64,000 nucleotides of DNA, from sequence record PX441839.1. The stretch is one strand, 5' to 3'. Positions 5,883 to 57,640 of the stretch are shown one piece after another. This stretch comes from a phage. The stretch's first letter is position 1. The number at the start of each line of letters is the position of its first letter. The position numbers and the translations under genes are program-made. The notes beneath the pieces are model-generated. The model saw nothing but the letters and a program-made list of their open reading frames with translations, was not told where the DNA came from and made no database searches.

Positions 5883-6344
5883 GTGGGTTATAAGTCCAAA
5901 CAAGACCTTTCTGAAATGGAAAGATACTTCGGGCAACTCACTGATTTGGCGGACAAAGAGGTTGAGTATGGCTTTTATGATGAGCAACATTACTCGGGCC
6001 TGAATATGGCAACTCTTGCCGCCATCCATGAGTATGGGTGGAATAAGCTTCCCGAACGTAACTTTATATATTCAACATCTATCCATTACAAGCAAGGATT
6101 GCAGAAGCATATAAGGAATATGCACACTGCAATTATCCAAGGGAAGTCTTTTGACAGTCACCTGAACAAGATTGGAAAGGATGGTGCCGACAGCATCAGA
6201 ATGACTATCCAACAAGGAGGATTTTCCAATCCTAAGGTATCAAAAGACTGGGCGCGTGTAAAAGGATTCGATGACGCAATGATTCACTATGGAGATTTGG
6301 CTTCCGCAGCAACTTACAAGGTTGTCAAATACCAAGGTAAATAA
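5883..6344 (+). CDS. hypothetical protein (connector/neck region)
   Basis: 153 aa; GTG start with GAGG 8 nt upstream. Confidence 0.55.
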   Translation: MGYKSKQDLSEMERYFGQLTDLADKEVEYGFYDEQHYSGLNMATLAAIHEYGWNKLPERNFIYSTSIHYKQGLQKHIRNMHTAIIQGKSFDSHLNKIGKDGADSIRMTIQQGGFSNPKVSKDWARVKGFDDAMIHYGDLASAATYKVVKYQGK

Positions 6345-6357
6345 ATAAGGGGTGAGT

Positions 6358-6798
6358 ATGGCTAGGCGATACCTCTTGTTGAGCAACAGGAACCGACTAA
6401 TCCCCCGTATTGAAGTGACGTGCCGCAGAAGATCTGCGGTAAAGACTGATCCAGACAACCCATTTGAAAATGGCTCCTTGGTAATGCAGTATGAGGAGTT
6501 CACCGCAGTGGAGTGTACTGTTCAGCCAATGCGTGGTAAGGCGGCTCGTGATCAGAACAACCAGTTACAGGTGGAAGGTGAAGTTGATTATGATTCCTAC
6601 ACCGTATACTCGGAAACCATTCTGCATCGTGCTCAAGAAGGTACGAACGAGTATTCTGACCAAATGTTACTTCCTGACTCTGTTGGGAAAGATACTTGGT
6701 TCACAGTCATGAAGGCAGATAGGTTTATAAGTTCAGGCGTTTCACGATACAGATACTATCTTATCGCTGTTCCTGAGGGAACAGAGGGAGGAATGTGA
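6358..6798 (+). CDS. hypothetical protein (connector/neck region)
   Basis: ATG at 6358 preceded by AGGGG; the track ORF begins at GTG 6352. Confidence 0.55.
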   Translation: MARRYLLLSNRNRLIPRIEVTCRRRSAVKTDPDNPFENGSLVMQYEEFTAVECTVQPMRGKAARDQNNQLQVEGEVDYDSYTVYSETILHRAQEGTNEYSDQMLLPDSVGKDTWFTVMKADRFISSGVSRYRYYLIAVPEGTEGGM

Positions 6799-7376
6799 TG
6801 AGTGATGTACCTATCACAGGACTTCCCTTTACAAATTCCGACGAGGTTATGGACTCGCTTACCAAAACCATTGGTAGGTTATGTGCCCAAGTGACAAACT
6901 ACAAAGTTGTTGAGGCAGATGATACACTACCTAAGGTGGATGGTCCATTCATTCTTGTAGATCTTTCATCTTTAGATCCCCTCGACTGGAAATCCGCAGA
7001 ATTGGTAGATGAGCAGGGTAGATATCATGCTGTTCATAACTACCAAGCGACATACACACTTACAGCTTATCGTGGAAAACCACATTGGGCCTTGTCAAGG
7101 GTTATGCAATCTTTCGGCTTGCAATTCATCTATGATAAGTTTTTCCCTTACGGGTCCCCTTATGCATATTCATCGTCTTCAACTATTGCACGGTTGCGTA
7201 TTCCGTTGAATGCCCAATATTTTGAAAATAGGGCACGAGTTCAGATTACCTTCAACGTAGCATTTGTGGAAGGCGATTTTGGTCTGTTTGAGGATCTGGA
7301 AGGAATTAGCATTGACATGGGTGTTGAATACCCAGGCGGGAAGTTGGAAGTTCCTGTAGAGGTGGAGACGGAGTAA
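6798..7376 (+). CDS. hypothetical protein (possible tail completion)
   Basis: ATG 6798 overlaps the previous stop (ATGTGATG); GAGGGAGG RBS. Confidence 0.55.
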   Translation: MSDVPITGLPFTNSDEVMDSLTKTIGRLCAQVTNYKVVEADDTLPKVDGPFILVDLSSLDPLDWKSAELVDEQGRYHAVHNYQATYTLTAYRGKPHWALSRVMQSFGLQFIYDKFFPYGSPYAYSSSSTIARLRIPLNAQYFENRARVQITFNVAFVEGDFGLFEDLEGISIDMGVEYPGGKLEVPVEVETE

Positions 7377-18445: not shown

Positions 18446-19936
18446 ATGGCTAAACCACGCAGCCAGCTTGTCGTTTGGGCAAGACAAGATGTTGCTTTGC
18501 CAAACACTGGCAGGATCAACAAAGTAAAACCTATTGATGACCTGTTGAATAAGGGTTATGATAAAGGTCAGAAGCCAGCGGCAGAAGAATTCAACTACAT
18601 CTTGAACATGTGTACCGATTGGGTACGATACATGCACGATGAGAAATTTCCAGAGTTTGAGAGGCAGATAGAAGAGAAGCTTGAAGCCTTCAAAGACGAG
18701 ATGGAAAAGGAGATGGACAAGGTCCGTGGGGAAATGGACCAATTGGAAGCCTCTGTTAATAATAAACTGGCGGCTTTTGAATCTTACCTTGTTCCAGTAG
18801 GGGCGGTTATTGCTTGGCCCTCTACAACAATACCGAAGGGTTGGTTAGAGTGTAACGGACAAGGTTTCAATATTGGTCAGAACCCCCGTCTGTATGCGGC
18901 ACTCGGAAGAGGTAACGTACCGGATTACCGTGGATTGTTCTTGCGAGGATGGGCACACGGTTCTGGTGAATATGATCCTGATGCAGGAAGGACTCTTGGC
19001 TCCATTCAGGGTGATGCCATTAGGAACATCACAGGTCGATTCGCTGCTGACCACGGTGAAACATGGATCATTGGTGCCTACAACGAGGGGGCCTTTTATG
19101 ATGCAGGTGTTGCTGGGTCTGGTGACAAGGGCGGGAAGGCAAACGAAACCCGTCAGATCCGATTTGATGCCAGTCGTGTTGTACCAACTGCGCCGGAAAA
19201 CCGACCTAAGAACATCGCAGTAATGTACATCATAAAGGCAGATGCTGCAACGGCAACTGGTGGTAATGTCCCAACAGGACTGGAAGTGACACCTGAAACA
19301 TTTGAGGGCCTTGTAGGTTCTACTTTCAGAGCCTCTGCTCAAGTTCTTCCAACGAACATGGCTCCTCAGTATCCTGTATCGTGGACCAGTCAAAACCCAG
19401 CAGTGGCAACTGTGGACGCCCAAGGTAATGTAAGAATTGTTGGTCAGGGGACAACAAGCATTATCGCATCAATATCTTCTGGGATGAACTCTAGGATCTC
19501 CATTGTGGGTCACAAACCTCTTACTGGCCTCTCTATCGCCCAGTTTGAAAATTTAGAGGTCGGTGGGAGCATAAGGACGACTGTAGCAAGAATACCATCT
19601 GATTCAACAGAACCCTTAATCTTCTCCACTGGCAACACAGGGATCGCCAACGTAACTCAAGATGGGGATGTTGTTGGGGTTGCAGAGGGAACAACTACCA
19701 TTTCTGCAAGGGGTCGGTTCACAGGGATAACTGCCAGAGCAAGCATAACCGTTGTTCCAGAAGAGGTTGTGACAACTGTTGAAGACATTATGCTGGGTAT
19801 TGAACAGCAAGCTCCAAACGCTGCACCAAAAGGATGTGTAATAACATACGTCGATGGTGGTGAAAACATGGAGTATGTCAGATATAAGCCCATCCAGAAG
19901 AAGGTAAATGGGGTGTGGGTAACTATTGAGGGTTAA
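18446..19936 (+). CDS. tail fiber protein with tail-collar domain and Ig-like repeats
   Basis: Coiled-coil N-terminus; collar-domain-like motif GWLECNGQGFNIGQNPRLYAALGRGNVPDYRGLFLRG; two or three Ig-like (Big_2-type) repeats (VLPTNMAPQYPVSWTSQNPAVATVDAQGNVRIVGQGTT...). Confidence 0.75.
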   Translation: MAKPRSQLVVWARQDVALPNTGRINKVKPIDDLLNKGYDKGQKPAAEEFNYILNMCTDWVRYMHDEKFPEFERQIEEKLEAFKDEMEKEMDKVRGEMDQLEASVNNKLAAFESYLVPVGAVIAWPSTTIPKGWLECNGQGFNIGQNPRLYAALGRGNVPDYRGLFLRGWAHGSGEYDPDAGRTLGSIQGDAIRNITGRFAADHGETWIIGAYNEGAFYDAGVAGSGDKGGKANETRQIRFDASRVVPTAPENRPKNIAVMYIIKADAATATGGNVPTGLEVTPETFEGLVGSTFRASAQVLPTNMAPQYPVSWTSQNPAVATVDAQGNVRIVGQGTTSIIASISSGMNSRISIVGHKPLTGLSIAQFENLEVGGSIRTTVARIPSDSTEPLIFSTGNTGIANVTQDGDVVGVAEGTTTISARGRFTGITARASITVVPEEVVTTVEDIMLGIEQQAPNAAPKGCVITYVDGGENMEYVRYKPIQKKVNGVWVTIEG

Positions 19937-19938
19937 TT

Positions 19939-20454
19939 ATGAAGATGGAAAACTTTGAAGTTTACTCTCCAGAATTTAAAAGGTTTGGAGAGGGCGTCCA
20001 ATATTTTAGGGATGCAGAAGGAAGAGACTTCTATGAGAGTCGTGATCTTTTCACCAAGAAGTATTGCGTGTTCTACGACGAGCATGGGGTTGTAAGGGGT
20101 ATCTGCAAATCAGTGGAGGTTACGAGGGGGAACCCTAACGGTCTATCTATTGCAGATCTCAACTCCTTGCCCAGAGGGTTTGAGATGTTCAAGGGTATCT
20201 GGAAATTCGACGGAAAGAGGATAATTCCTTGTGATTTTGACCCTGCCATAACAACCAAGATGCGGAAGGATAAGTTATTCAAAGCTCTTGCCTCACGACT
20301 TGCCCCTCTTCAAGATGCTGTTGAATTGGAGGAAGCCACAGAGGAAGAGACCTTGGAATATAAAAGGCTCCGTTCATTAAGGGTTAAGCTTCTCCGAGTC
20401 CCAGATGACGAGTCCCCTAGTAATGTAGCTTGGGAAGATTTCTCGGGTATTTAA
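19939..20454 (+). CDS. hypothetical protein (possible tail fiber assembly/chaperone)
   Basis: 171 aa directly after the tail fiber gene; GAGGG RBS. Confidence 0.45.
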   Translation: MKMENFEVYSPEFKRFGEGVQYFRDAEGRDFYESRDLFTKKYCVFYDEHGVVRGICKSVEVTRGNPNGLSIADLNSLPRGFEMFKGIWKFDGKRIIPCDFDPAITTKMRKDKLFKALASRLAPLQDAVELEEATEEETLEYKRLRSLRVKLLRVPDDESPSNVAWEDFSGI

Positions 20455-20463
20455 TAGCTGCCA

Positions 20464-20482
20464 GTGCCGACCCTGTCGGCAC
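20464..20482 (+). terminator. stem-loop (possible terminator or RNA structure)
   Basis: GTGCCGAC-cct-GTCGGCAC perfect 8-bp hairpin, no clear T-tract. Confidence 0.35.
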
Positions 20483-20494
20483 ATAGGAGATAAA

Positions 20495-20833
20495 ATGATT
20501 CTTGATATAATGGCAGTTCTTAAAGCACTCTGGGGATTTGCCACTTTTATTTTGTTGGGGATTCTCAAAATTACGTATTCTGACTTCAAAAAGATGCAGG
20601 AACGTCAGGACACTCTTGAGAAAGATATTATCCGACTCAGGAGTGAGATGGTTACTAAGGACAGTCTTGATGATATTTTTGATCGGAAGATGAAACATAT
20701 TCAAGACACTATCCAGGATATACGTGGGGATCTCGCAGACATGCGAGGAGAAACAAAGGACGAGGTTACTGCCTTACGTAATGAAATCAGGACTGTTTTG
20801 AATGTAGTTTTGGAGAGAAGCAACAGACAATGA
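20495..20833 (+). CDS. small membrane protein with coiled-coil
   Basis: 112 aa; N-terminal hydrophobic helix (LKALWGFATFILLGILKI) then charged helical region. Confidence 0.5.
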   Translation: MILDIMAVLKALWGFATFILLGILKITYSDFKKMQERQDTLEKDIIRLRSEMVTKDSLDDIFDRKMKHIQDTIQDIRGDLADMRGETKDEVTALRNEIRTVLNVVLERSNRQ

Positions 20834-21291
20834 TATCTTCCCTGTTCTACGGGATGTGCTTCCTGATTGTCCTTATGAACCCTTGCGTTCGTACAAAAAT
20901 AATGGCGGGGCTATGCCTCGCCTATATTGTAATAGAGAATATGATGCTTTGGTACACAATAACCAATGTTATCCATTTCGATATTACCCTTTATCATACC
21001 CTCGGGTGGATATTGGATTCAACTCTTTTGTTTGCAGTGGGTTGTGTTTTAAGAGGAAAGAGGCAGATCCTCATCATAGCTTCCGCAATACCCCTTATGG
21101 TGTCTCAAGTGTTAGCAATCCAATATCCTTCTATGTTCCCACCTGATGTATACCAGTGGGTAATTAAAGATGCTCACATGTATTTTATTGAGATGTTTAT
21201 CTTCGCTCATTCTTGGAAAGACAACACAGTAAAAGAGTGGTTAAAGACAGGAACAGTGTTGGGCCTTGTTGTTGCTGCACATTTAGTTTGA
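20830..21291 (+). CDS. multi-pass membrane protein
   Basis: 153 aa, about 4 hydrophobic segments; ATGA overlap with the previous gene. Confidence 0.5.
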   Translation: MISSLFYGMCFLIVLMNPCVRTKIMAGLCLAYIVIENMMLWYTITNVIHFDITLYHTLGWILDSTLLFAVGCVLRGKRQILIIASAIPLMVSQVLAIQYPSMFPPDVYQWVIKDAHMYFIEMFIFAHSWKDNTVKEWLKTGTVLGLVVAAHLV

Positions 21292-21310
21292 TTGATATTA
21301 CAGGTGGTAT

Positions 21311-21583
21311 ATGTTAAAATTCCTAAAGGACTTGATCCGGTCCACAACCGACCCTGCCAAGGCTTCACATACAAAGCTTTGGTCGAATATCGGTATGGCT
21401 TCAATGACTGCGGTGTTTCTCTGGTATGGTTTCAAAGGAACCCTCCCTGAGTGGTATTTGTGGGTTTATGCCCCTTCCGTTGCTGCACCACAGTTATTTA
21501 GCAAACTGATCGCCCTTCGTTGGGGAATAAACCCCAACCAGAAGAATACAGAAGATGAATTAAAAGGAGATCCTCGTGGCTGA
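21311..21583 (+). CDS. small membrane protein
   Basis: 90 aa with a hydrophobic segment (IGMASMTAVFLWYGF); AGGTGG RBS. Confidence 0.45.
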   Translation: MLKFLKDLIRSTTDPAKASHTKLWSNIGMASMTAVFLWYGFKGTLPEWYLWVYAPSVAAPQLFSKLIALRWGINPNQKNTEDELKGDPRG

Positions 21584-24500
21584 TGATATTATTCAACTGA
21601 TCAGTGCAGAAGCTGACGCCGCTGTTGACCAAATCATTGAAGACTCTGTAAGGCTTCATAAAGTTGTAAATGGAACTGGAGTTGAGACAGTTGTAACAGA
21701 AGATGGTAGCATAATCCCTTCTGTTCGAAAAGCCCTGATTGACAACTTGTATTTTAAGACCCCTCCAATTCCTTGGAGACAAGGAACACAGGTAAGAGAG
21801 TTTAACCAACTTTATTCCTTTACCGATGTAAACGGAAAAGCCACTTGGTGGTATGCACCAGGAGCTACAAACAGTTCACCAGTGACGCAAGGTGATCAGC
21901 CAGCTACGGATACAAGATGGAGAGTGTTCTTAGATGCTGGGAATATGGATGGGATCTATGCTCCGATCCTGTCTCCAGATTTCAAGGGAAATCCGAGAGT
22001 ACCCACCCCTGCGGAAGGTGATGAGAGCACCTCAATTGCAAACACACTGTGGACAAAAAATGCGATAGCAAAAGCTATTGACATTGCACTTCCTAACTGG
22101 GATGATGCAATTTTTAACAACATCACTGTTAAAAATAATTCGGTGCTCAATAATCTCAGAGCAGACGGGCAGGTAACTTTTACTGGTCCGAAGGTCGATG
22201 CTGTTGATTCAGAGTTCAACCTTAAAAAGATCAATCTCGTCGGGGAAGATGCAGAAATAAATTTCCTTTGGTCTGATGGATCAGGTTACAGAACAAACCT
22301 GACACCCAACAAGATCTTCACTGCGGAAATGACGGCAAACAGGGTCAAAGGTTCGTATGTTGAATCAGGAGAACCTCGTGCTGTTGGAACAACTATGCGT
22401 GGGCATGGAGAGGCAATCTTTGATACTGTGCATATCTCAAAAAACGAAAGACAGCCAGTGGATGCAGACACATTATCTGTCACTGGGATAACCCGTGTTC
22501 AAAACCTCATTGTAGAGGGAGAGGCAGTAGGGATCAAGTCTAACGTAGATGGAACAACCATCGCACCGAGCAACATAAACAATGATGGGCATATTAATAC
22601 CAAATCCCTGTATGTCTCCGAAGAGACTCAATTGGATGGTATTACAAGGATCGGTGATGTAGAATTCTTAGGGACTGTCAAGGGACTTGATATGAATATC
22701 GAGTTCGACGAGATGAACCTTAAGAGTTTAAATGTCGCAGAATCCCTTGTTGTTGGTGGACAAACAACAATGTCTGCCGCTGTTATCGGAGATGTTGTTT
22801 TCACTGGATCTGTGGCGGGTATCGTATTGCCACCTGCCAATGTCGATGGACAGGAAATAAAACCTGCCTCTGTTGAGACAGAAACTCTCGATGTGTTGGG
22901 AGAGACCGTTCTTGAGAACCTGACAGTAAATGGAACGGTGACTGGCATTGACATGTCTGTAGATGGAACAGACATATCCCCATCAAATGTTACGACAGGA
23001 AACTTAACCGTTAATGGACAGCTTACCATGAACGGGGCTATCCAAATTAACAATATTGATGGTGACTCTGTCAAGACGAAAACGTTAGAGGTCTCCAACT
23101 TAGCAACTGTTCAGAATCTGACTGTTCCAGAGGAAGGGACTATAACGGGTTTTGGAAAGGTTGTCAATGAGCAAGATATCCTTCCAAACTCTGTCTCTGT
23201 AAAAGAGGGGTTGTCTGTAGGAGGAACTACTAACCTGAGAGATGTGAACATCTCTGGGAAAGTAACTGGACTCAATCCCGATTTCGGGCCTGGTTCAACG
23301 ATTACCTCTGACACGGTAAATGCTAAAACGGTAAATGCTGATACTGTCAATGCAACTACTTCCAGGACTGGGAACATAACGGTTACTGGAAGGATCTTAG
23401 ATGCAGAAGGAAATGATTTTGCTCTCCGTGTAAGTCCAGAACAGATTGGTGAAGCTATCAAGGTTCTTGATATCCAGCCAAAAACCATTGTTACTAAAGT
23501 CAGTGATGAGGATAAAGGATCTGTAACCACAGGTACAATCACGGCTGATAATGGAAACATTGGAACTTTAGGGACCAGCAACCTCACCATGCAAAATGGT
23601 ACGGTAAACGGATCTTTGAAGGTGATGGGAGAGATCCTGGACAAGGATGGAAACCCTGTTGCAATTATGGACATTCCGAGCATGATTGCTGGGAAGGACA
23701 TCGCACCGAAGGACGTTAGATCCTCTGGCTCTGTAACTGCCGCTGTGGACCTTACCGTCAATGGAAAGGCCAAGGTAGGTGGAACCTTAGAAACAGGCTC
23801 TGTGACCGTTACAGGAGGTCTCAGCACAACAGGCAGTGTCACTGTAACTGAGCAGCTATCTGTTCTTGGCAACGCTGTTGTTTCTGGAAGTCTACAGTCA
23901 ACAGGTGCGGACATTGGAGGAACGACCTCTGTTGACAATCTGATTGTAGCTGGAACCCTTACAGATGCACAAGGGAACCCAATTGGATCTGTCGAGTCAA
24001 TCACAGGGAAGGATATCAATCCTCGTGCTGTAACTGCAACTGGTAATATTTCCACAACAGGGACTATTACCGGACAGTCTGGTAGAGTAGATGAATCATT
24101 CACTGTAGGAACTGACCTTGGGGTTTCAGGTAAGTTGTCAGCAGGAGAGACAACACTTGGAGTCACAAAAACATCTTCTCTGGAAACAGGTCCAATAAAG
24201 ACATCTGGAATATCTGTCCTTGAGGGTAGTATTTCGACAGGCAAAGCTGTGACTGTAGGAACTGACCTTACTGTAACAGACAATGCCGTCATCGGTCATG
24301 TAGATATGGATTTTGACGGTGATCGGTTGAAGGTTGTGGGGAACCAACGGGTAGAGGGGAACCTGTATGTAACTGGAAACATCAACGGGAACGTAGATAT
24401 TTCTGGGCAGGATATTAACCCGAGATCTGTAACTGCCTCTGGTAATATTTCGGTTGCAGGTACAATTAGCTCCGACATTGGAGATTTCAACTCTGTCGAG

Positions 24501-25064
24501 ATTGGTGTTTCTGGAACTGCGGTTGGCCTCAGGGTCCTCAATAATGCAACTTTTGCTGGAGATCTCACTGTCTCAGGAAAGGTCAATGCAACTATTGACC
24601 AATCCGAGCAAGATGTAGTGACAAAGAACCTGCAAACTGGTAATATAACTGCAACGGCTATAACTGCTGGAAGTTTAAATGTTACTGGTGCTCTTAAGGC
24701 CCCGACTTCGGATGTTGAGGCAAACAGTGTCACTGCAAACAAGTTCATGGTCACACCTCAAGAAAGAACGCTAGATACTGGGGCATTTATCCCTGATGGA
24801 ACAACCAATATCTACAATATTGTATTGACACAGAATACAAGAATTGAGGCCCCTAGTCAACTTATTCAAGGTGGCAAGGGTGGTTCTATCATTATCTACT
24901 TGAACCAGGATGCAACTGGTGGTAGGGAGGTAACATTCTCCACAGAGTATCAAGCTCTTAATGATGGTGAAATAAATATGAACCCTAGTGGTGTTACTGT
25001 GGTCCAGTTGATGTATTCTGGACATGGAAGCATCATTGATACACTTATCCTTCCTAGAGTGTAA
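21576..25064 (+). CDS. large repeat-rich tail fiber/tailspike-like protein
   Basis: 1162 aa; GTG start with AAAGGAG RBS; T/G/V/N-rich with many degenerate repeats of DI.P..V...GN..V.G type (for example DINPRSVTASGNISVAGTISS, DINPRAVTATGNISTTGTITG). Confidence 0.7.
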   Translation: MADDIIQLISAEADAAVDQIIEDSVRLHKVVNGTGVETVVTEDGSIIPSVRKALIDNLYFKTPPIPWRQGTQVREFNQLYSFTDVNGKATWWYAPGATNSSPVTQGDQPATDTRWRVFLDAGNMDGIYAPILSPDFKGNPRVPTPAEGDESTSIANTLWTKNAIAKAIDIALPNWDDAIFNNITVKNNSVLNNLRADGQVTFTGPKVDAVDSEFNLKKINLVGEDAEINFLWSDGSGYRTNLTPNKIFTAEMTANRVKGSYVESGEPRAVGTTMRGHGEAIFDTVHISKNERQPVDADTLSVTGITRVQNLIVEGEAVGIKSNVDGTTIAPSNINNDGHINTKSLYVSEETQLDGITRIGDVEFLGTVKGLDMNIEFDEMNLKSLNVAESLVVGGQTTMSAAVIGDVVFTGSVAGIVLPPANVDGQEIKPASVETETLDVLGETVLENLTVNGTVTGIDMSVDGTDISPSNVTTGNLTVNGQLTMNGAIQINNIDGDSVKTKTLEVSNLATVQNLTVPEEGTITGFGKVVNEQDILPNSVSVKEGLSVGGTTNLRDVNISGKVTGLNPDFGPGSTITSDTVNAKTVNADTVNATTSRTGNITVTGRILDAEGNDFALRVSPEQIGEAIKVLDIQPKTIVTKVSDEDKGSVTTGTITADNGNIGTLGTSNLTMQNGTVNGSLKVMGEILDKDGNPVAIMDIPSMIAGKDIAPKDVRSSGSVTAAVDLTVNGKAKVGGTLETGSVTVTGGLSTTGSVTVTEQLSVLGNAVVSGSLQSTGADIGGTTSVDNLIVAGTLTDAQGNPIGSVESITGKDINPRAVTATGNISTTGTITGQSGRVDESFTVGTDLGVSGKLSAGETTLGVTKTSSLETGPIKTSGISVLEGSISTGKAVTVGTDLTVTDNAVIGHVDMDFDGDRLKVVGNQRVEGNLYVTGNINGNVDISGQDINPRSVTASGNISVAGTISSDIGDFNSVEIGVSGTAVGLRVLNNATFAGDLTVSGKVNATIDQSEQDVVTKNLQTGNITATAITAGSLNVTGALKAPTSDVEANSVTANKFMVTPQERTLDTGAFIPDGTTNIYNIVLTQNTRIEAPSQLIQGGKGGSIIIYLNQDATGGREVTFSTEYQALNDGEINMNPSGVTVVQLMYSGHGSIIDTLILPRV

Positions 25065-25071
25065 TGTAAAC

Positions 25072-25101
25072 AATAGCCCCTACTAAGGGGCTATTTTACT
25101 T
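25072..25101 (+). terminator. rho-independent terminator
   Basis: TAGCCCCT-acta-AGGGGCTA hairpin followed by TTTTACTTTT. Confidence 0.65.
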
Positions 25102-25114
25102 TTGAGGAGACAAA

Positions 25115-27613
25115 ATGATACCTTTCCCATTATTAGGTGGAAAATCACCAACTCCACCACCGCCACTTCCAAAGGGCGTTTCTGGGTACTCAGGAACTAC
25201 CTACATAGGTGAAGATGGTGAAACTTGGTCTTGGAACAGGCAACTGGAGAGATGGATTAAAAAAGATCCGTTTCCAGTTGACGAAGGGCATCCTGAACAC
25301 TTCATGGTGGGGCCTGCAAAGATAGGCACAGATGGTTCTTTCCGATACTTCAATACTGTAACCAACGCTTGGGAAGATGTTCCTAACGGGAGCACCTTGG
25401 GGATGGTCCCTCTGACCCTGACAGATGAAGGCGTAAACATAGGGACATCGGTATTTGTAGAGTATCCCATTTATCAATCCGCTGGGTATGCCGTAGGTCT
25501 TGGAGGGTTCGCAAGACTGCTTGGGACGGAGGTACTGGGAAGACCAGATCTTATGGACCTGTACCTTATAGGAAGAAGAGGGGATTTCTTTTCACCTTCT
25601 CCTGCAAACCCTGACTCCACCAACGCAATTCTCGTAATTCGAAATGTTAAAAGGGATAGGGTGTGGAATACTTACCTGAACATGGTTGTGGAAACAAGTG
25701 ATGGGGAGATGTGGGCTTGGGGAATGAACTTCTATAATCAGTACGGCCCTTGGATAAGAAGCGGAGTAACAAGTTCCAGTCAACCACACATGAAGATAAA
25801 CCCATTCTCTAAAATATCTGATTTTCCAGTACCACCTGAGAAAATAAAAGATATCTTCCCCGGTGTAACAATGGTCATAGTTGCAGACACTGACGGGAAA
25901 TTCTGGTCCAAAGGGATTAACATTGGTCAGTTTAACGATATTGATGACCAAATTAGGACAGCCTGGGTAGAGATACCCGCAGATAGGTTCCCAGGGTTTA
26001 AAAAGTTTTATCGGAGTCTTAACGGAACAGGTGCCGCCAATGATCTTGCTTACACCAACTGCGTTTGGTATTTGACAGATACAGGGATAAGACATTTTGG
26101 AAATGTGTATGGAGTGATGGACGGTTCCCCACTTGTATCTGCAACAACTAGGGATCTCCCTGACAGTAAAGTTCACTCAGCCCCTGTAGGATTGCCTGAA
26201 AGGAATGATGAGCCTAAAATAGTGAGTTTTTCACTGGCCAGATCTTCTGACTATATCCTTATTGCTGTTTGGTATGATGACCCCGAAGAGATGTATGTTG
26301 CCTATCCTACTTCTGGACTTATTTGGGACCACGCAGATGGAGTAACGTATGGGAGGAGATTCAATAAATCCTCAGCCCCTGTAGGGAAGCATAGGAACCC
26401 CATACTGGACTTCAATAAAGAGGCCACCCTTATAACGGGGTTTGATGGAAAATTCTATGCTTCTGGGACCCCAAGTGTAAATAACGGGCTATACTCAAGA
26501 ACCAGCCCAACCACTTTTATCGACCAGAAGATGCCATCCTCTCTCGTTTATCAGGTTGAGCTATCCGACTCTGTAAACGGAAAAACTCAACTGTTGAGAA
26601 ATGATAGGCGTTCTTTAATGATAGCCGACCTTTCGGGAGGAAGCAACTACTTTGGAAATGGAACTTTCTGGAAACCAACTGCAACGATTAAGTGGCCTGA
26701 CTATCCAGACGCAATTCCAATAGTGTTCAAGAATGATGGTGTCACTATCTCGGGATCTGCTGAAAGGGTAGATACGTTTTGGGGGTGGAATGTTAGCAAC
26801 TACAACACTGTCAGCAGTACAGCCGGAGACCAGTACGGTGCTCCCAGTGGGGATGCTGTGCATGTCTCAGGGGAAGGGCACCTTACAATCTGGAAAGATG
26901 ATAGCAGTATCCTTGTTGGTGGTTACAACATAGGTGGAGTGTTTGGTGCTTTTAACCAGTGGAAGCAACCACAAGGTGCTGGAAGGTGGGTAGGCACAGT
27001 AAGAGAGTCTTTTACTGGCACATCGACAGTAAGCTGCGGAACCACTATTGCTTGGGATGGAAAAGATCATTACATATTTGGCAAAAACTACTGGGATGTT
27101 GCAAACGGACAACCAGTAATAAAGTTCAGTTCCTCTGCACCTGTAAAATGGAACAGTAAACAGGGATACCCGAACCTCCCTAATTTTATAAAATGGATTC
27201 CTGCAATTATGGGATATTCTGATGACGAGGGTTCTTTGCAACAACCCTTCTTTATGTATCGGGGTACTGACGGTCTGTTTTATGCTGCGGGTAGCAATAC
27301 AACAGGTGCCTTGGCGACAGGGACCCCACCTGAGACAAGGGATGAGCAAAGATGGACTTTTGAGGTAATGAAGGGATCTGAGGTGTTTGTTGGTAAAAAT
27401 GTTAAGGTTTACCACGGACACGGAAATACCTCTTGTTTGTTGTTCGCTTGCGAGGGAAAGGTGTACGGTGTTGGATTACCTAACAGTATGAAATGGAATG
27501 ACACCGGAACCATCCCTGACCCGTTCTTCCCTGGTTTCAACAGAAGGCTTAATGAAATCACCTACCTGATGGATTTGCCGGATGTTATCTATACCCGACC
27601 AATAGAAGAATAA
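25115..27613 (+). CDS. RCC1-like beta-propeller repeat protein (candidate distal fiber/receptor-binding protein)
   Basis: 832 aa; GAGGAG RBS; at least 5 repeats of [DG].G..[WYF]..G.N..G type (EMWAWGMNFYNQYG, KFWSKGINIGQFND, KFYASGTPSVNNGLY, LFYAAGSNTTGALATG, KVYGVGLPNSMKWND); last gene of the plus-strand operon. Confidence 0.6.
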   Translation: MIPFPLLGGKSPTPPPPLPKGVSGYSGTTYIGEDGETWSWNRQLERWIKKDPFPVDEGHPEHFMVGPAKIGTDGSFRYFNTVTNAWEDVPNGSTLGMVPLTLTDEGVNIGTSVFVEYPIYQSAGYAVGLGGFARLLGTEVLGRPDLMDLYLIGRRGDFFSPSPANPDSTNAILVIRNVKRDRVWNTYLNMVVETSDGEMWAWGMNFYNQYGPWIRSGVTSSSQPHMKINPFSKISDFPVPPEKIKDIFPGVTMVIVADTDGKFWSKGINIGQFNDIDDQIRTAWVEIPADRFPGFKKFYRSLNGTGAANDLAYTNCVWYLTDTGIRHFGNVYGVMDGSPLVSATTRDLPDSKVHSAPVGLPERNDEPKIVSFSLARSSDYILIAVWYDDPEEMYVAYPTSGLIWDHADGVTYGRRFNKSSAPVGKHRNPILDFNKEATLITGFDGKFYASGTPSVNNGLYSRTSPTTFIDQKMPSSLVYQVELSDSVNGKTQLLRNDRRSLMIADLSGGSNYFGNGTFWKPTATIKWPDYPDAIPIVFKNDGVTISGSAERVDTFWGWNVSNYNTVSSTAGDQYGAPSGDAVHVSGEGHLTIWKDDSSILVGGYNIGGVFGAFNQWKQPQGAGRWVGTVRESFTGTSTVSCGTTIAWDGKDHYIFGKNYWDVANGQPVIKFSSSAPVKWNSKQGYPNLPNFIKWIPAIMGYSDDEGSLQQPFFMYRGTDGLFYAAGSNTTGALATGTPPETRDEQRWTFEVMKGSEVFVGKNVKVYHGHGNTSCLLFACEGKVYGVGLPNSMKWNDTGTIPDPFFPGFNRRLNEITYLMDLPDVIYTRPIEE

Positions 27614-27621
27614 CAACCAAT

Positions 27622-27653
27622 AAAAAGGCTCCCGAATGGGAGCCTTTTCTTTT
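27622..27653. terminator. bidirectional rho-independent terminator between convergent operons
   Basis: AAAAAGGCTCCC-gaat-GGGAGCCTTTTCTTTT, A-run on one side and T-run on the other, between the + gene ending 27613 and the - gene ending 27659. Confidence 0.7.
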
Positions 27654-29728: not shown

Positions 29729-30112
29729 TTATTTTCTCCCCTTCTTACGGTGATAAACTCCACGTTTGGACAGAGGAATTTCCTCTGCATCTCTTCCATC
29801 AACACCATCTTCACCAGGTTCACCTTGAGGACCCATTGGACCTGCTGGTCCCATTGGCCCCATAGGTCCTACAGGTCCAGTGACAACACGAATGTCTTTA
29901 GGTTTGTACAGAGAATAACCCAAGCATCCAAACCAACCGATAAGTGTAATTACGCTCGGAGGCAAAAGGAAGAAGATAACAGTAAAGACAGAGATCATCC
30001 ACTTATTCCTGTGATCCTTCTTCCATGCGATAATTATTGGGGAAAAACTAATTGCCAATAAAATTAACAGAAAAACAAGACCGAGAGTGATGGCAGCTTC
30101 TGCAATTATCAT
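29729..30112 (-). CDS. membrane protein with C-terminal collagen-like repeat
   Basis: Two hydrophobic helices, then VTGPVGPMGPMGPAGPMGPQGEPGEDGVDG (about 9 Gly-X-Y triplets). Confidence 0.55.
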   Translation of the reverse strand: MIIAEAAITLGLVFLLILLAISFSPIIIAWKKDHRNKWMISVFTVIFFLLPPSVITLIGWFGCLGYSLYKPKDIRVVTGPVGPMGPMGPAGPMGPQGEPGEDGVDGRDAEEIPLSKRGVYHRKKGRK

Positions 30113-30390
30113 TAACGAAGACCCTCTTTGATTTTAAGTTCAATCAACCCTGCATCCAGGGTATACATGTATCCAGTGTTATCCCGAAAGTAACAAAGGA
30201 CTCCCTTGGGTTCGGATTTTCTTACTATGACCCGACCCCTTTGATAACCAGGTTGTGTTTCACAAACCTTGTACAGTTCCTGAATACGGGAAGGCAGAAT
30301 AGTATGAGAATTCTTGTACTTATCCTCACCTTCTTCCAGACACCCTGTCAAAAGTACAGAGCACAGTAGTGCAATAATTAACTTTTTCAT
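30112..30390 (-). CDS. putative lipoprotein
   Basis: Start at MKKLIIALLCSVLLTGC (signal peptide with lipobox LTGC); ATGA overlap with the upstream small ORF. Confidence 0.6.
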   Translation of the reverse strand: MKKLIIALLCSVLLTGCLEEGEDKYKNSHTILPSRIQELYKVCETQPGYQRGRVIVRKSEPKGVLCYFRDNTGYMYTLDAGLIELKIKEGLR

Positions 30391-30563
30391 GCGCAGAATG
30401 CCGCCACAATTAGTGAAAAGGGCCACACGATCCCGAAAATTACAGAGGGTCCTTTGTCAATTCTGCAAAATCGACGATAGAATAGTCGCCCTGCTCCAAC
30501 ACTGATCAGGATATAGAGTAAAGATACAAGTAACTCAAGTGCATATAATGTTAAAAAATTCAT
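30387..30563 (-). CDS. small two-helix membrane protein (not in the ORF track; holin-like topology)
   Basis: 58-aa ORF MNFLTLYALELLVSLLYILISVGAGRLFYRRFCRIDKGPSVIFGIVWPFSLIVAAFCA; AAGGA RBS; stop overlaps the lipoprotein start. Confidence 0.45.
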   Translation of the reverse strand: MNFLTLYALELLVSLLYILISVGAGRLFYRRFCRIDKGPSVIFGIVWPFSLIVAAFCA

Positions 30564-56998: not shown

Positions 56999-57125
56999 CC
57001 ACTAAGGATTCACATAAGTAACTTTGAATGAATCCATCGTGAAAATCTAAAACCTTAAATACATGACCCGCCTTTGGGTGGTCGAGTCTGTCACTATAAT
57101 CCGCCGTCAGATACACTTTCTTCAT
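56943..57125 (-). CDS. hypothetical small protein
   Basis: Start set at internal Met (MKKVYLTADY) to avoid overlapping the hydrolase gene. Confidence 0.35.
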   Translation of the reverse strand: MKKVYLTADYSDRLDHPKAGHVFKVLDFHDGFIQSYLCESLVDGKTYVLYPDEIEEYIGE

Positions 57126-57640
57126 TTTACCCTCTCTTTGTAAAATATGTGGTTTCCGATTATTACTGTTCTTACCATACTGGCTATCCAATAGGGCCTG
57201 ATCTTCTTTGTATGGTAATGCGTAGAACCATTCGTGAAATCATAAGATGAGTATACAGCAGGGTACTTGTGCAATGCAAGAATAAATTTGGATAATTTCT
57301 TTGCCTTCTCCCAAGTAGCTTTATCCCTGATCCGGTAATTCTTGCCGGAGTTTGCCCAAGAGAACTGGGAATCTTGATAAACAACACCTTTTACGGAATC
57401 TGGATATCTGTCCTTATCTTTTCTGTTGAGAGTTACAAAACCAACAGCGAGCATACCTCTCTCACCTTCACCAGATGCCTCTTTAAACATGTTACATGCA
57501 AGGGCATTGACTGCATTATCATTCTTCTTGCAGACGTGGACAACGGGTGGGTTTTTCGGTGCGTTCTCTTTAGCCAAAGCCGAGGCGGTGGATAGAGACA
57601 ACGTACAGGCCAAAAGAATGGCGGTTATCCGCTTCTTCAT
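57122..57640 (-). CDS. secreted cell wall hydrolase (SleB/CwlJ-like)
   Basis: Sec-type signal peptide MKKRITAILLACTLSLSTASALA; FKEASGEGERGMLAVGFVTLNR, YQDSQFSW, THYH, IGNHIFYKE match SleB-family motifs (from memory). Confidence 0.7.
   Translation of the reverse strand: MKKRITAILLACTLSLSTASALAKENAPKNPPVVHVCKKNDNAVNALACNMFKEASGEGERGMLAVGFVTLNRKDKDRYPDSVKGVVYQDSQFSWANSGKNYRIRDKATWEKAKKLSKFILALHKYPAVYSSYDFTNGSTHYHTKKIRPYWIASMVRTVIIGNHIFYKERVK

Follow-up and report, generated by a model that had tools for sequence, protein, structure and literature searches.

A candidate lysis module among the tail fiber genes of an rV5-like phage

Three consecutive membrane-protein genes in the tail fiber block

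The stretch of DNA analyzed here, a window of 64,000 nucleotides (nt) from phage sequence record PX441839.1, derives from a large, virulent, rV5-like myophage (subfamily Vequintavirinae), and our subject is a trio of small membrane-protein genes, the open reading frames (ORFs) A, B, and C, that lies among its tail fiber genes. The closest relative is Salmonella phage SSBI34, with a DNA identity of 83% over positions 19900-21700, and the gene order is shared with SSBI34, UPEC06, CB7, PVP-SE1, and rV5. The tail, baseplate, and fiber genes run on the + strand from about position 1 to 27613, and early genes occupy the - strand beyond. The original prediction, made from the sequence alone, had placed three hydrophobic ORFs starting at 20495, 20830, and 21311 between a collar-domain fiber with its chaperone and a fiber of 1162 amino acids (aa), and both the coordinates and the flanking genes were confirmed, as follows:

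18446-19936, + strand: collar-domain short tail fiber, homologue of the phiTE short tail fiber (STF) (Pfam Collar 4.5e-13, and Big_2; PDB 9cuy_c 'Short tail fiber' 2.3e-161)
19939-20454, + strand: tail fiber assembly chaperone (Caudo_TAP 5.4e-7; phrog_136 2.7e-33)
20495-20833, + strand: ORF A, 112 aa (phrog_5345)
20830-21291, + strand: ORF B, 153 aa (phrog_7451)
21311-21583, + strand: ORF C, 90 aa (phrog_1322)
21576-25064, + strand: 1162-aa tail fiber, homologue of the N-terminal part of the phiTE long tail fiber (LTF) (phrog_4549 2e-194; PDB 9cuy_g 1.7e-117)

All three ORFs gave strong PHROG matches, with E values of 4e-39 for A (phrog_5345), 8.5e-57 for B (phrog_7451), and 1.3e-29 for C (phrog_1322, over residues 1-82). 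When compared with SSBI34, the ratio of nonsynonymous to synonymous substitution rates (dN/dS) was 0.004 for A, where 40 nucleotide differences leave the protein identical, 0.086 for B, and 0.069 for C. The reading frames are also interlocked: the stop of A and the start of B overlap as ATGA, and the 3' end of C overlaps the GTG start of the 1162-aa fiber gene by 8 nt. Given the strong PHROG matches, the low dN/dS values, and these overlapping starts and stops, A, B, and C are genuine genes under strong purifying selection and not chance ORFs.

Good Shine-Dalgarno sequences precede A and C. The only convincing terminator-like hairpins lie at 25072-25095, after the 1162-aa fiber gene, and at 27623-27648, after the next gene, while a terminator scan of 18446-25064 returned, weak intragenic hairpins aside, no terminator-like site. 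Since such hairpins follow only the 1162-aa fiber gene and the gene behind it, A to C appear to be co-transcribed with the fiber genes; reading the timing from the gene layout, we infer that all three are expressed late, from the tail fiber transcript. Both terminator-like hairpins are bidirectional, and the one at 27623-27648 stands behind an 832-aa RCC1-repeat protein, at the point where the late and early strands converge. A perfect 8-base-pair hairpin, GTGCCGAC-CCT-GTCGGCAC, was also seen at 20463-20481, within the 40 nt that separate the chaperone gene from ORF A; its folding z-score is -1.96 (not significant), and it has no U-tail.

The distribution of the three genes was analyzed by tblastn. 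A was present in 222 phage records, which cover all Vequintavirinae and include rV5 gp31 at 26% identity. B was present in 107 records, from Certrevirus, Seunavirus, Mydovirus, and Avunavirus, and is absent from rV5, where the fiber gene gp30 takes its place between A (gp31) and C (gp29). C was the most widespread, with 374 records, adding the phi92-like Stephanstirmvirinae and Aeromonas Plateaulakevirus, in both of which it always lies within the baseplate and fiber module. In Aeromonas phage 2L372D, the fiber and its chaperone are followed by an A homologue (gp077; E 2e-14 with a hidden Markov model, HMM), a 146-aa ORF, and a C homologue (gp076); the 146-aa ORF (6499-6939) is unannotated and polytopic and is the positional counterpart of B, to which it aligns by hhalign with a probability (Prob) of only 36%. 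In the phi92-like phage tuntematon, an A-like gene (gp131; hhalign 39%) follows the chaperone and C is gp136, so that gp131 and gp136 flank a block of wedge, baseplate, fiber, and chaperone genes. An A-like gene after the fiber chaperone is found in three lineages, namely Vequintavirinae, Aeromonas Plateaulakevirus, and phi92-like phages. The fibers vary, but A and C are kept in phages that infect Escherichia, Salmonella, Klebsiella, Cronobacter, Pectobacterium, Erwinia, Serratia, and Aeromonas. The conservation of C in phages of so many host genera argues for a host-independent core function.

The annotation of relatives is of little help, since the trio is labeled hypothetical or "putative membrane protein" (PVP-SE1 gp44/43/42, CB7_33/34/35, and rV5 gp31/gp29), and no function proposed for it was found in these annotations. 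Scans of A, B, and C against Pfam and NCBIfam gave nothing useful (coiled-coil noise in the case of A), word-indexed homologue searches recovered close Vequintavirinae relatives only, and the literature searched yielded nothing on DUF2644, PF26221, or the holin families named in TCDB. Several MG0656xx records, entitled 'Campylobacter phage ...', contain A and C genes of the rV5 or phi92 type that do not differ from the coliphage genes, and the host labels of these records look wrong.

ORF C and the holin slot of Mu-like lysis cassettes

ORF C consists of a basic N-terminus (5 K/R, 2 D/E), two weakly hydrophobic helices (residues 24-41 and 48-69; mean Kyte-Doolittle hydropathy, KD, 0.9-1.0) joined by a six-residue loop, and a charged C-terminus (4 K/R, 4 D/E). 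The predicted topology places both termini in the cytoplasm (N-in/C-in), as in class II holins. Octopus/Phobius give one transmembrane domain (TMD) in the homologue PVP-SE1 gp42. The N-terminal region carries the motif SHTKLWSN, of which S19, H20, T21, W24, S25, and N26 are invariant among close relatives.

We then searched for remote relatives of C. Among 1.8 billion representative proteins, a profile of its close relatives picked out 125, all of them small, including P0178 (E 1.9e-6; 96% identical to protein X of Pseudomonas phage Bise) and P0159 (2e-8). Every one of the 121 remote relatives scanned matched phrog_1322, and six of them also gave a weak match to Pfam DUF2644 (best 6e-5); C itself has no Pfam match. 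Across these 121 family sequences, S19 and W24 are at least 90% conserved, and the common layout is an SHTKxW(S/A)N motif followed by two hydrophobic helices, with an extra N-terminal helix in some members. Public databases almost always name phrog_1322 proteins hypothetical, apart from one 'Holin' label in UniRef. One member of the family, an unannotated ORF of Stenotrophomonas phage Moby (~5938-6321) with the extra N-terminal helix, lies alone among T4-like replication genes, on the strand opposite to its neighbors and followed by an annotated terminator; it may be the holin of Moby.

Two of the relatives belong to small Mu-like phages, where they are part of a typical lysis cassette. The late activator of Ralstonia phage RS138 is followed in turn by the endolysin, ORF27 (phrog_1322, 9e-23), and Rz with an embedded Rz1 lipoprotein, and in Pseudomonas phage Bise, Mor is followed by an M15-type endolysin, X (WWQ71652; phrog_1322, 1e-19), and Rz with an embedded lipoprotein. 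A profile restricted to Vequintavirinae C proteins matched Bise X (5e-12) and RS138 ORF27 (1.7e-8) directly. Like C, both are phrog_1322 proteins of 75-90 aa with the SHTKxW(S/A)N motif and two helices; their genes, however, lie between endolysin and Rz/Rz1, whereas C lies among fiber genes with no endolysin nearby.

To more broadly assess this gene order, one genome per bacterial species (GTDB) was searched with a subset of the C alignment, which yielded C-like genes in 55 prophage loci. The same-strand upstream neighbor was a peptidoglycan hydrolase in at least 39 of 52 loci, and these hydrolases belong to five unrelated families (phrog_315 in 16 loci, M15 peptidase in eight, phrog_1259 in seven, amidase in six, and another in two). 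On the downstream side, the commonest PHROGs among 40 neighbors were Rz-like spanins (phrog_1403 20 times, phrog_5369 11 times, and phrog_4719 10 times), and 28 of the 40 fell into one BLAST cluster. A hydrophobic N-terminal segment, whether a signal or a signal-anchor-release (SAR) sequence, is missing from all 39 upstream hydrolases, which suggests that these are cytoplasmic enzymes in need of a true holin, and no other membrane protein was found upstream of the endolysin in the loci inspected. One small membrane protein that stays constant between interchangeable endolysins and spanins is the signature of a holin. Judged by gene order, the C-family gene thus occupies the holin slot of Mu-like lysis cassettes.

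The build of C, a 90-aa protein with two helices between a basic N-terminus and a charged C-terminus, is holin-like too, and together with the position of its relatives it makes C a candidate holin. Among characterized holins it can be compared with the class II holin S68 of phage 21, a small N-in/C-in protein with two TMDs, which is the layout predicted for C; as in S68, the first helix of C is rich in weakly hydrophobic residues (56% G/A/S/T/M/N). In contrast, there is no sequence similarity between the two, C has no dual-start motif, and the relatives of C are paired with soluble endolysins, for which large holes and not pinholes are needed.

ORFs A and B and the gp25-like proteins

ORF A has a single, strongly hydrophobic N-terminal segment (residues ~5-26, maximum KD19 2.08), followed by a charged, helical, coiled-coil-like tail of ~85 residues that is slightly acidic (17 K/R, 19 D/E). 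One K/R precedes the TMD and four K/R follow within 15 residues; by the positive-inside rule, on which the prediction depends entirely, A would be oriented N-out/C-in.

When profiles were compared by hhalign, A aligned with the BcepMu gp25-like family (phrog_462), represented by a 29-sequence alignment, with Prob 82% and E 1.1e-5 over 71 columns, and local runs gave 75-81%. The alignment extends from the TMD through the motif pairs MVTKD versus YV(R/L)RED and DRKxK versus EAKxD. Control comparisons remained low, at 0.4% for Rz inner-membrane spanins (i-spanins), which have the same layout of TMD and coiled coil, and at no more than 14.7% for 20 column-shuffled alignments. In addition, when the A HMM was run against 1203 prophage ORFs, the best 12 matches were all gp25-like ORFs, while the PHROG scan of A did not list phrog_462. 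A is thus a probable, but not proven, distant homologue of the gp25-like lysis-cassette protein.

In Mu-like cassettes, gp25-like phrog_462 proteins follow Rz/Rz1 (BcepMu gp25, B3 ORF28, and Bise Z), which is the position of the Mu releasin, and 34 of the 55 prophage loci with a C-like gene carry a gp25-like gene as well. A variant cassette was seen in Moraxella/Faucicola prophages, in which no recognizable endolysin precedes the C-like gene and a gp25-like gene lies ~200 nt downstream. Mu gp25, the "releasin," is a cytoplasmic protein anchored to the membrane, without which the SAR endolysin of Mu is not freed, and the Mu paper describes three divergent DUF2730 types, some of them beside soluble endolysins. 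Mu gp25 and the phrog_462 proteins share with A a length of ~100 aa and a predicted architecture, in which the TMD stands at the very start of the protein, the topology would be N-out/C-in, basic residues lie close to where TMD and tail meet, and the helical tail, slightly acidic, would be cytoplasmic. The one function shown for the releasin is the release of a SAR endolysin in Mu. A releasin gene is expected at most five genes downstream of the endolysin (PMC9239132); A has no endolysin gene at that distance, and there is none in the fiber block.

We also considered A as an i-spanin, which could be ruled out both by the hhalign value against Rz-type i-spanins given above and by the position of the spanins of relatives, beside the large terminase gene. 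A partner lipoprotein was looked for as well: no ORF with a lipobox lies within or after A, and B, which starts MISSLFYGMC, has no lipobox.

ORF B is hydrophobic throughout, with three segments passing KD19 >= 1.55, and its PVP-SE1 homologue is annotated with four TMDs. An AlphaFold2 model (pLDDT 85) is all-helical with six helices, and B is accordingly modeled as a polytopic all-helical membrane protein with four clear TMDs and up to six helices. Its precomputed Pfam assignment is PF26221, and fold searches returned generic helical bundles only. Homologue searches found no relatives of B outside the subfamily, and no B-like protein was found in Mu-like loci, in rV5, or in phi92-like loci. Since rV5 does without it, B is dispensable at the genus level. 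P2 LysA, a putative antiholin of ~140 aa with four TMDs, has its gene among lysis genes within a late morphogenetic operon and would tune lysis timing. Compared by description, and as an analogy only, B is likewise polytopic and encoded in a late operon, and an antiholin-like timing role for B, after P2 LysA, would be a guess.

A proposed late lysis module and its alternatives

The holin of Vequintavirinae has not been firmly identified to date, and published guesses differ. No holin homologue was seen in the rV5 paper, which offered gp129 as a guess; the guess of the CB7 paper was a 65-aa protein (CB7_82) next to a SleB-like hydrolase, with the spanins beside the large terminase gene; and according to the KPP-1 paper, a holin could not be found. 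CB7, rV5, and PVP-SE1 all have their spanins by the large terminase gene, the same arrangement as in podophages such as SP6. The window contains a single hydrolase:

57122-57640, - strand: SleB-like peptidoglycan hydrolase (phrog_938 endolysin 1.5e-26)

Its N-terminus, MKKRITAILLACTLSLSTASALA, is signal-, SAR-, or possibly lipoprotein-like, with an N-terminal KD15 of 1.89 compared to 1.71 for the Mu SAR endolysin gp22, and we speculate that the enzyme is a secreted endolysin controlled by a holin or a releasin-like protein. A holin candidate of the CB7_82 type could be ruled out here, as no ORF with two TMDs lies beside the hydrolase. A record filed under Vequintavirinae, OM835952 ('Klebsiella phage KP12 clone KP12_2'), is a 35-kilobase Mu-like element whose genes include holin, lysin, Rz, gp25-like, TerS, and FluMu gp29; since it is Mu-like, the 'KP12 holin' of PMC9902359 belongs to a different phage or prophage.

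The original prediction regarded membrane proteins inside a tail fiber block as unusual, but holin genes are found there in both T4 and T7. The T4 order is 37 (fiber), 38 (assembly), and t (holin), and in T7, 17 (fiber) is followed by 17.5 (holin), with the spanins beside the terminase. In both phages, the holin gene lies at the end of the fiber genes and apart from the endolysin. The layout here is alike, with fiber, chaperone, and then the membrane proteins, and with the spanins of relatives by the large terminase gene. Neither T4 T, which has a single TMD and a large domain in the periplasm, nor T7 gp17.5 has any sequence relationship to the trio, and there is one gene there compared to three here.

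On the grounds of homology and synteny only, we see about an even chance that the trio is a late-operon lysis module, with C as the holin, A as a gp25-like partner, and B as an accessory; how the proteins sit in the membrane, that they are made late, that holes form, and what A and B do are inferred. That C alone is a lysis protein we hold with somewhat greater confidence. In such a module, A, B, and C would be non-virion inner-membrane proteins forming the membrane part of the lysis system. C would build up in the inner membrane as a hairpin of two helices whose ends both face the cytoplasm, and it would open the membrane at a set time, whereupon an endolysin encoded elsewhere would reach the cell wall and the spanins, by the large terminase gene in relatives, would complete lysis. 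A, as a membrane-tethered cytoplasmic coiled coil, might modulate the holin or help to release a secreted or signal-anchored endolysin, and B would be an accessory polytopic protein, maybe an antiholin-like timing factor, that some genera do without. A holin or antiholin set was one of the two options in the original prediction; the position of the phrog_1322 family in the holin slot now favors it for C, the gp25-like relative favors it tentatively for A, and B gained no support.

Several observations weigh against a lysis module. With respect to C, TMHMM/Phobius give no TMD in its homologue rV5 gp29, its helices are only weakly hydrophobic (mean KD ~0.9-1.0), and its AlphaFold2 model is of low confidence (pLDDT 57), too low for a fold search. 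Among the prophage loci, 13 of the 52 upstream neighbors of C-like genes are not recognizable hydrolases, and four Moraxella loci have no adjacent endolysin. In the window, no endolysin or spanin gene adjoins the trio, whose neighbors are fiber genes, although such adjacency is also lacking for T4 t. The link between A and the gp25-like family stands at just 75-82% probability, and with a six-sequence gp25-like alignment, hhalign gave only 4%, a discrepancy from the 29-sequence result that calls for caution. Pfam DUF2730 matches only Mu gp25 among the 29 gp25-like sequences and misses the other 28, and Mu gp25 alone aligns by hhalign with neither the gp25-like family nor A (Prob 2% for A); A itself has no match to DUF2730 (PF10805) at E <= 1. 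Because of these failures, the tie between A and the characterized Mu releasin is positional and architectural only. In phi92-like phages, A adjoins the fiber chaperone and C lies four genes away, which fits a fiber-related role too. For B, no lysis-related relatives were found by homologue searches, by fold searches, or in Mu-like loci. Lastly, the holin candidates of other authors are different proteins (rV5 gp129 and CB7_82), and no experimental work on any member of phrog_1322, phrog_5345, or phrog_7451 was found in the literature searched.

The trio might instead consist of membrane-anchored morphogenesis factors for fibers or baseplate, of which A, and maybe B and C too, would tether or organize assembly at the inner membrane together with the chaperone and be left behind at maturation. 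All three genes lie within the baseplate and fiber module, the A-like gene keeps its place after the fiber chaperone in the three lineages named above even where C has been displaced, and a chaperone-like role would fit the absence of the proteins from the virion. The coiled coil of A also shows a weak likeness to the neighboring fiber (phrog_12846, 0.076; CB7_31, 2e-4 in a small database; PDB 9cuy_c, 0.025), but such similarities are typical of compositional matches. We nevertheless consider this explanation unlikely, since the C family is found in Mu-like lysis cassettes far from any fiber genes, the best remote relatives of A are lysis-cassette and not fiber proteins, and rV5 swaps B for a fiber gene while keeping A and C. 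The other option of the original prediction, fiber-associated accessory factors, is accordingly weakened by the cassette relatives, while the adjacency of A to the chaperone in three lineages still speaks for it.

Small membrane proteins that adjoin receptor-binding genes also bring to mind superinfection exclusion or envelope modification, by which the trio would block receptors or DNA entry and so protect the progeny and the cell already infected; T5 Llp, encoded next to pb5, Cor, and T4 Imm and Sp are examples of this type. The PHROG category of phrog_1322, 'moron, auxiliary metabolic gene and host takeover', is compatible with such a role, as is a weak match of A to phrog_1625, 'bacteriocin production or immunity' (0.011), the only exclusion-related PHROG match obtained. 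However, receptor-specific exclusion proteins would be expected to vary, whereas A and C are constant across host genera while the fibers change; exclusion is needed early, whereas the trio lies in the late operon; A, B, and C have no PADLOC match at E <= 0.1; and the C family belongs to lysis cassettes elsewhere. Better candidates, with weak Imm-like and Cor-like matches, are available on the early strand at 29729-30563. An exclusion function of the trio is thus rather improbable.

Least probable of all, in our estimate, is that the three are minor virion proteins which insert in the host membrane as a DNA conduit or pilot, their helices being hidden in the baseplate until tail contraction. 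The genes do lie in a structural operon, and in a few records, homologues of A bear the name 'putative structural protein' or 'tail fiber protein'. In the CB7 record, by contrast, the fiber proteins on both sides are "MS/MS confirmed" (tandem mass spectrometry), while CB7_32 to CB7_35 are not flagged, and Table S3 of the rV5 paper gives no mass spectrometry evidence for gp29 or gp31. A PDB search with the A, B, and C profiles found no matching chain, including in the phiTE whole virion and baseplate (9cuy/9mjn) and the phi92 baseplate (21vq), although the phiTE structures do match other proteins of the window (wedge, 2e-249; short fiber, 2e-161; long fiber, 2e-117). Small membrane proteins are hard to detect, and absence from the virion is therefore supportive rather than absolute, but these data suggest that A, B, and C are not virion components; the original prediction had named virion structural components as the outcome that would speak against a holin set, and neither the mass spectrometry nor the structures pointed to it.

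To return to the lysis module, a more far-reaching version of it, which we regard as doubtful, holds that A and C are an ancient lysis-control pair, a holin with a tethered coiled coil, common to Mu-like phages and to rV5-, phi92-, and Plateaulake-type myophages, with B as a new polytopic antiholin. If such a pair were real, the gp25-like/releasin class would not be confined to transposable phages, and its general job would be the regulation of the holin and not only the release of SAR endolysins; the similarity of A already suggests that the gp25-like lysis protein has relatives outside transposable phages. The rV5- and phi92-like phages rank with the most frequently isolated coliphages of broad host range and find use in therapy and biocontrol, and with C (rV5 gp29, PVP-SE1 gp42, CB7_35) as holin candidate and A as its likely partner, their lysis timing becomes testable and engineerable. 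A functional label would also be gained for the widespread and unnamed phrog_1322 (DUF2644-like) family in Mu-like prophages of Neisseria, Moraxella, Pseudomonas, and Ralstonia. The novelty lies in placing these conserved unnamed families in the lysis system, a kind of system that is itself well known.

Two further groups of genes were observed near the end of the late operon. Just past it, on the - strand at 29729-30563, lie three small envelope-protein genes, which are candidate superinfection-exclusion genes:

first gene: 127 aa, two TMDs and a Gly-Pro collagen-like tail, phrog_15593, with a weak 'immunity to superinfection' match (1e-7)
second gene: 104-aa lipoprotein with lipobox LLTGC and a weak Cor-like match (9e-4)
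third gene: 58 aa, two TMDs, no family

At the end of the fiber block itself, the 832-aa protein (25115-27613, + strand) carries signatures of RCC1/beta-propeller repeats (Pfam WD40_RLD 6e-9), is not annotated as a tail protein in PHROG, and may be one more protein that binds receptors or associates with the fibers.

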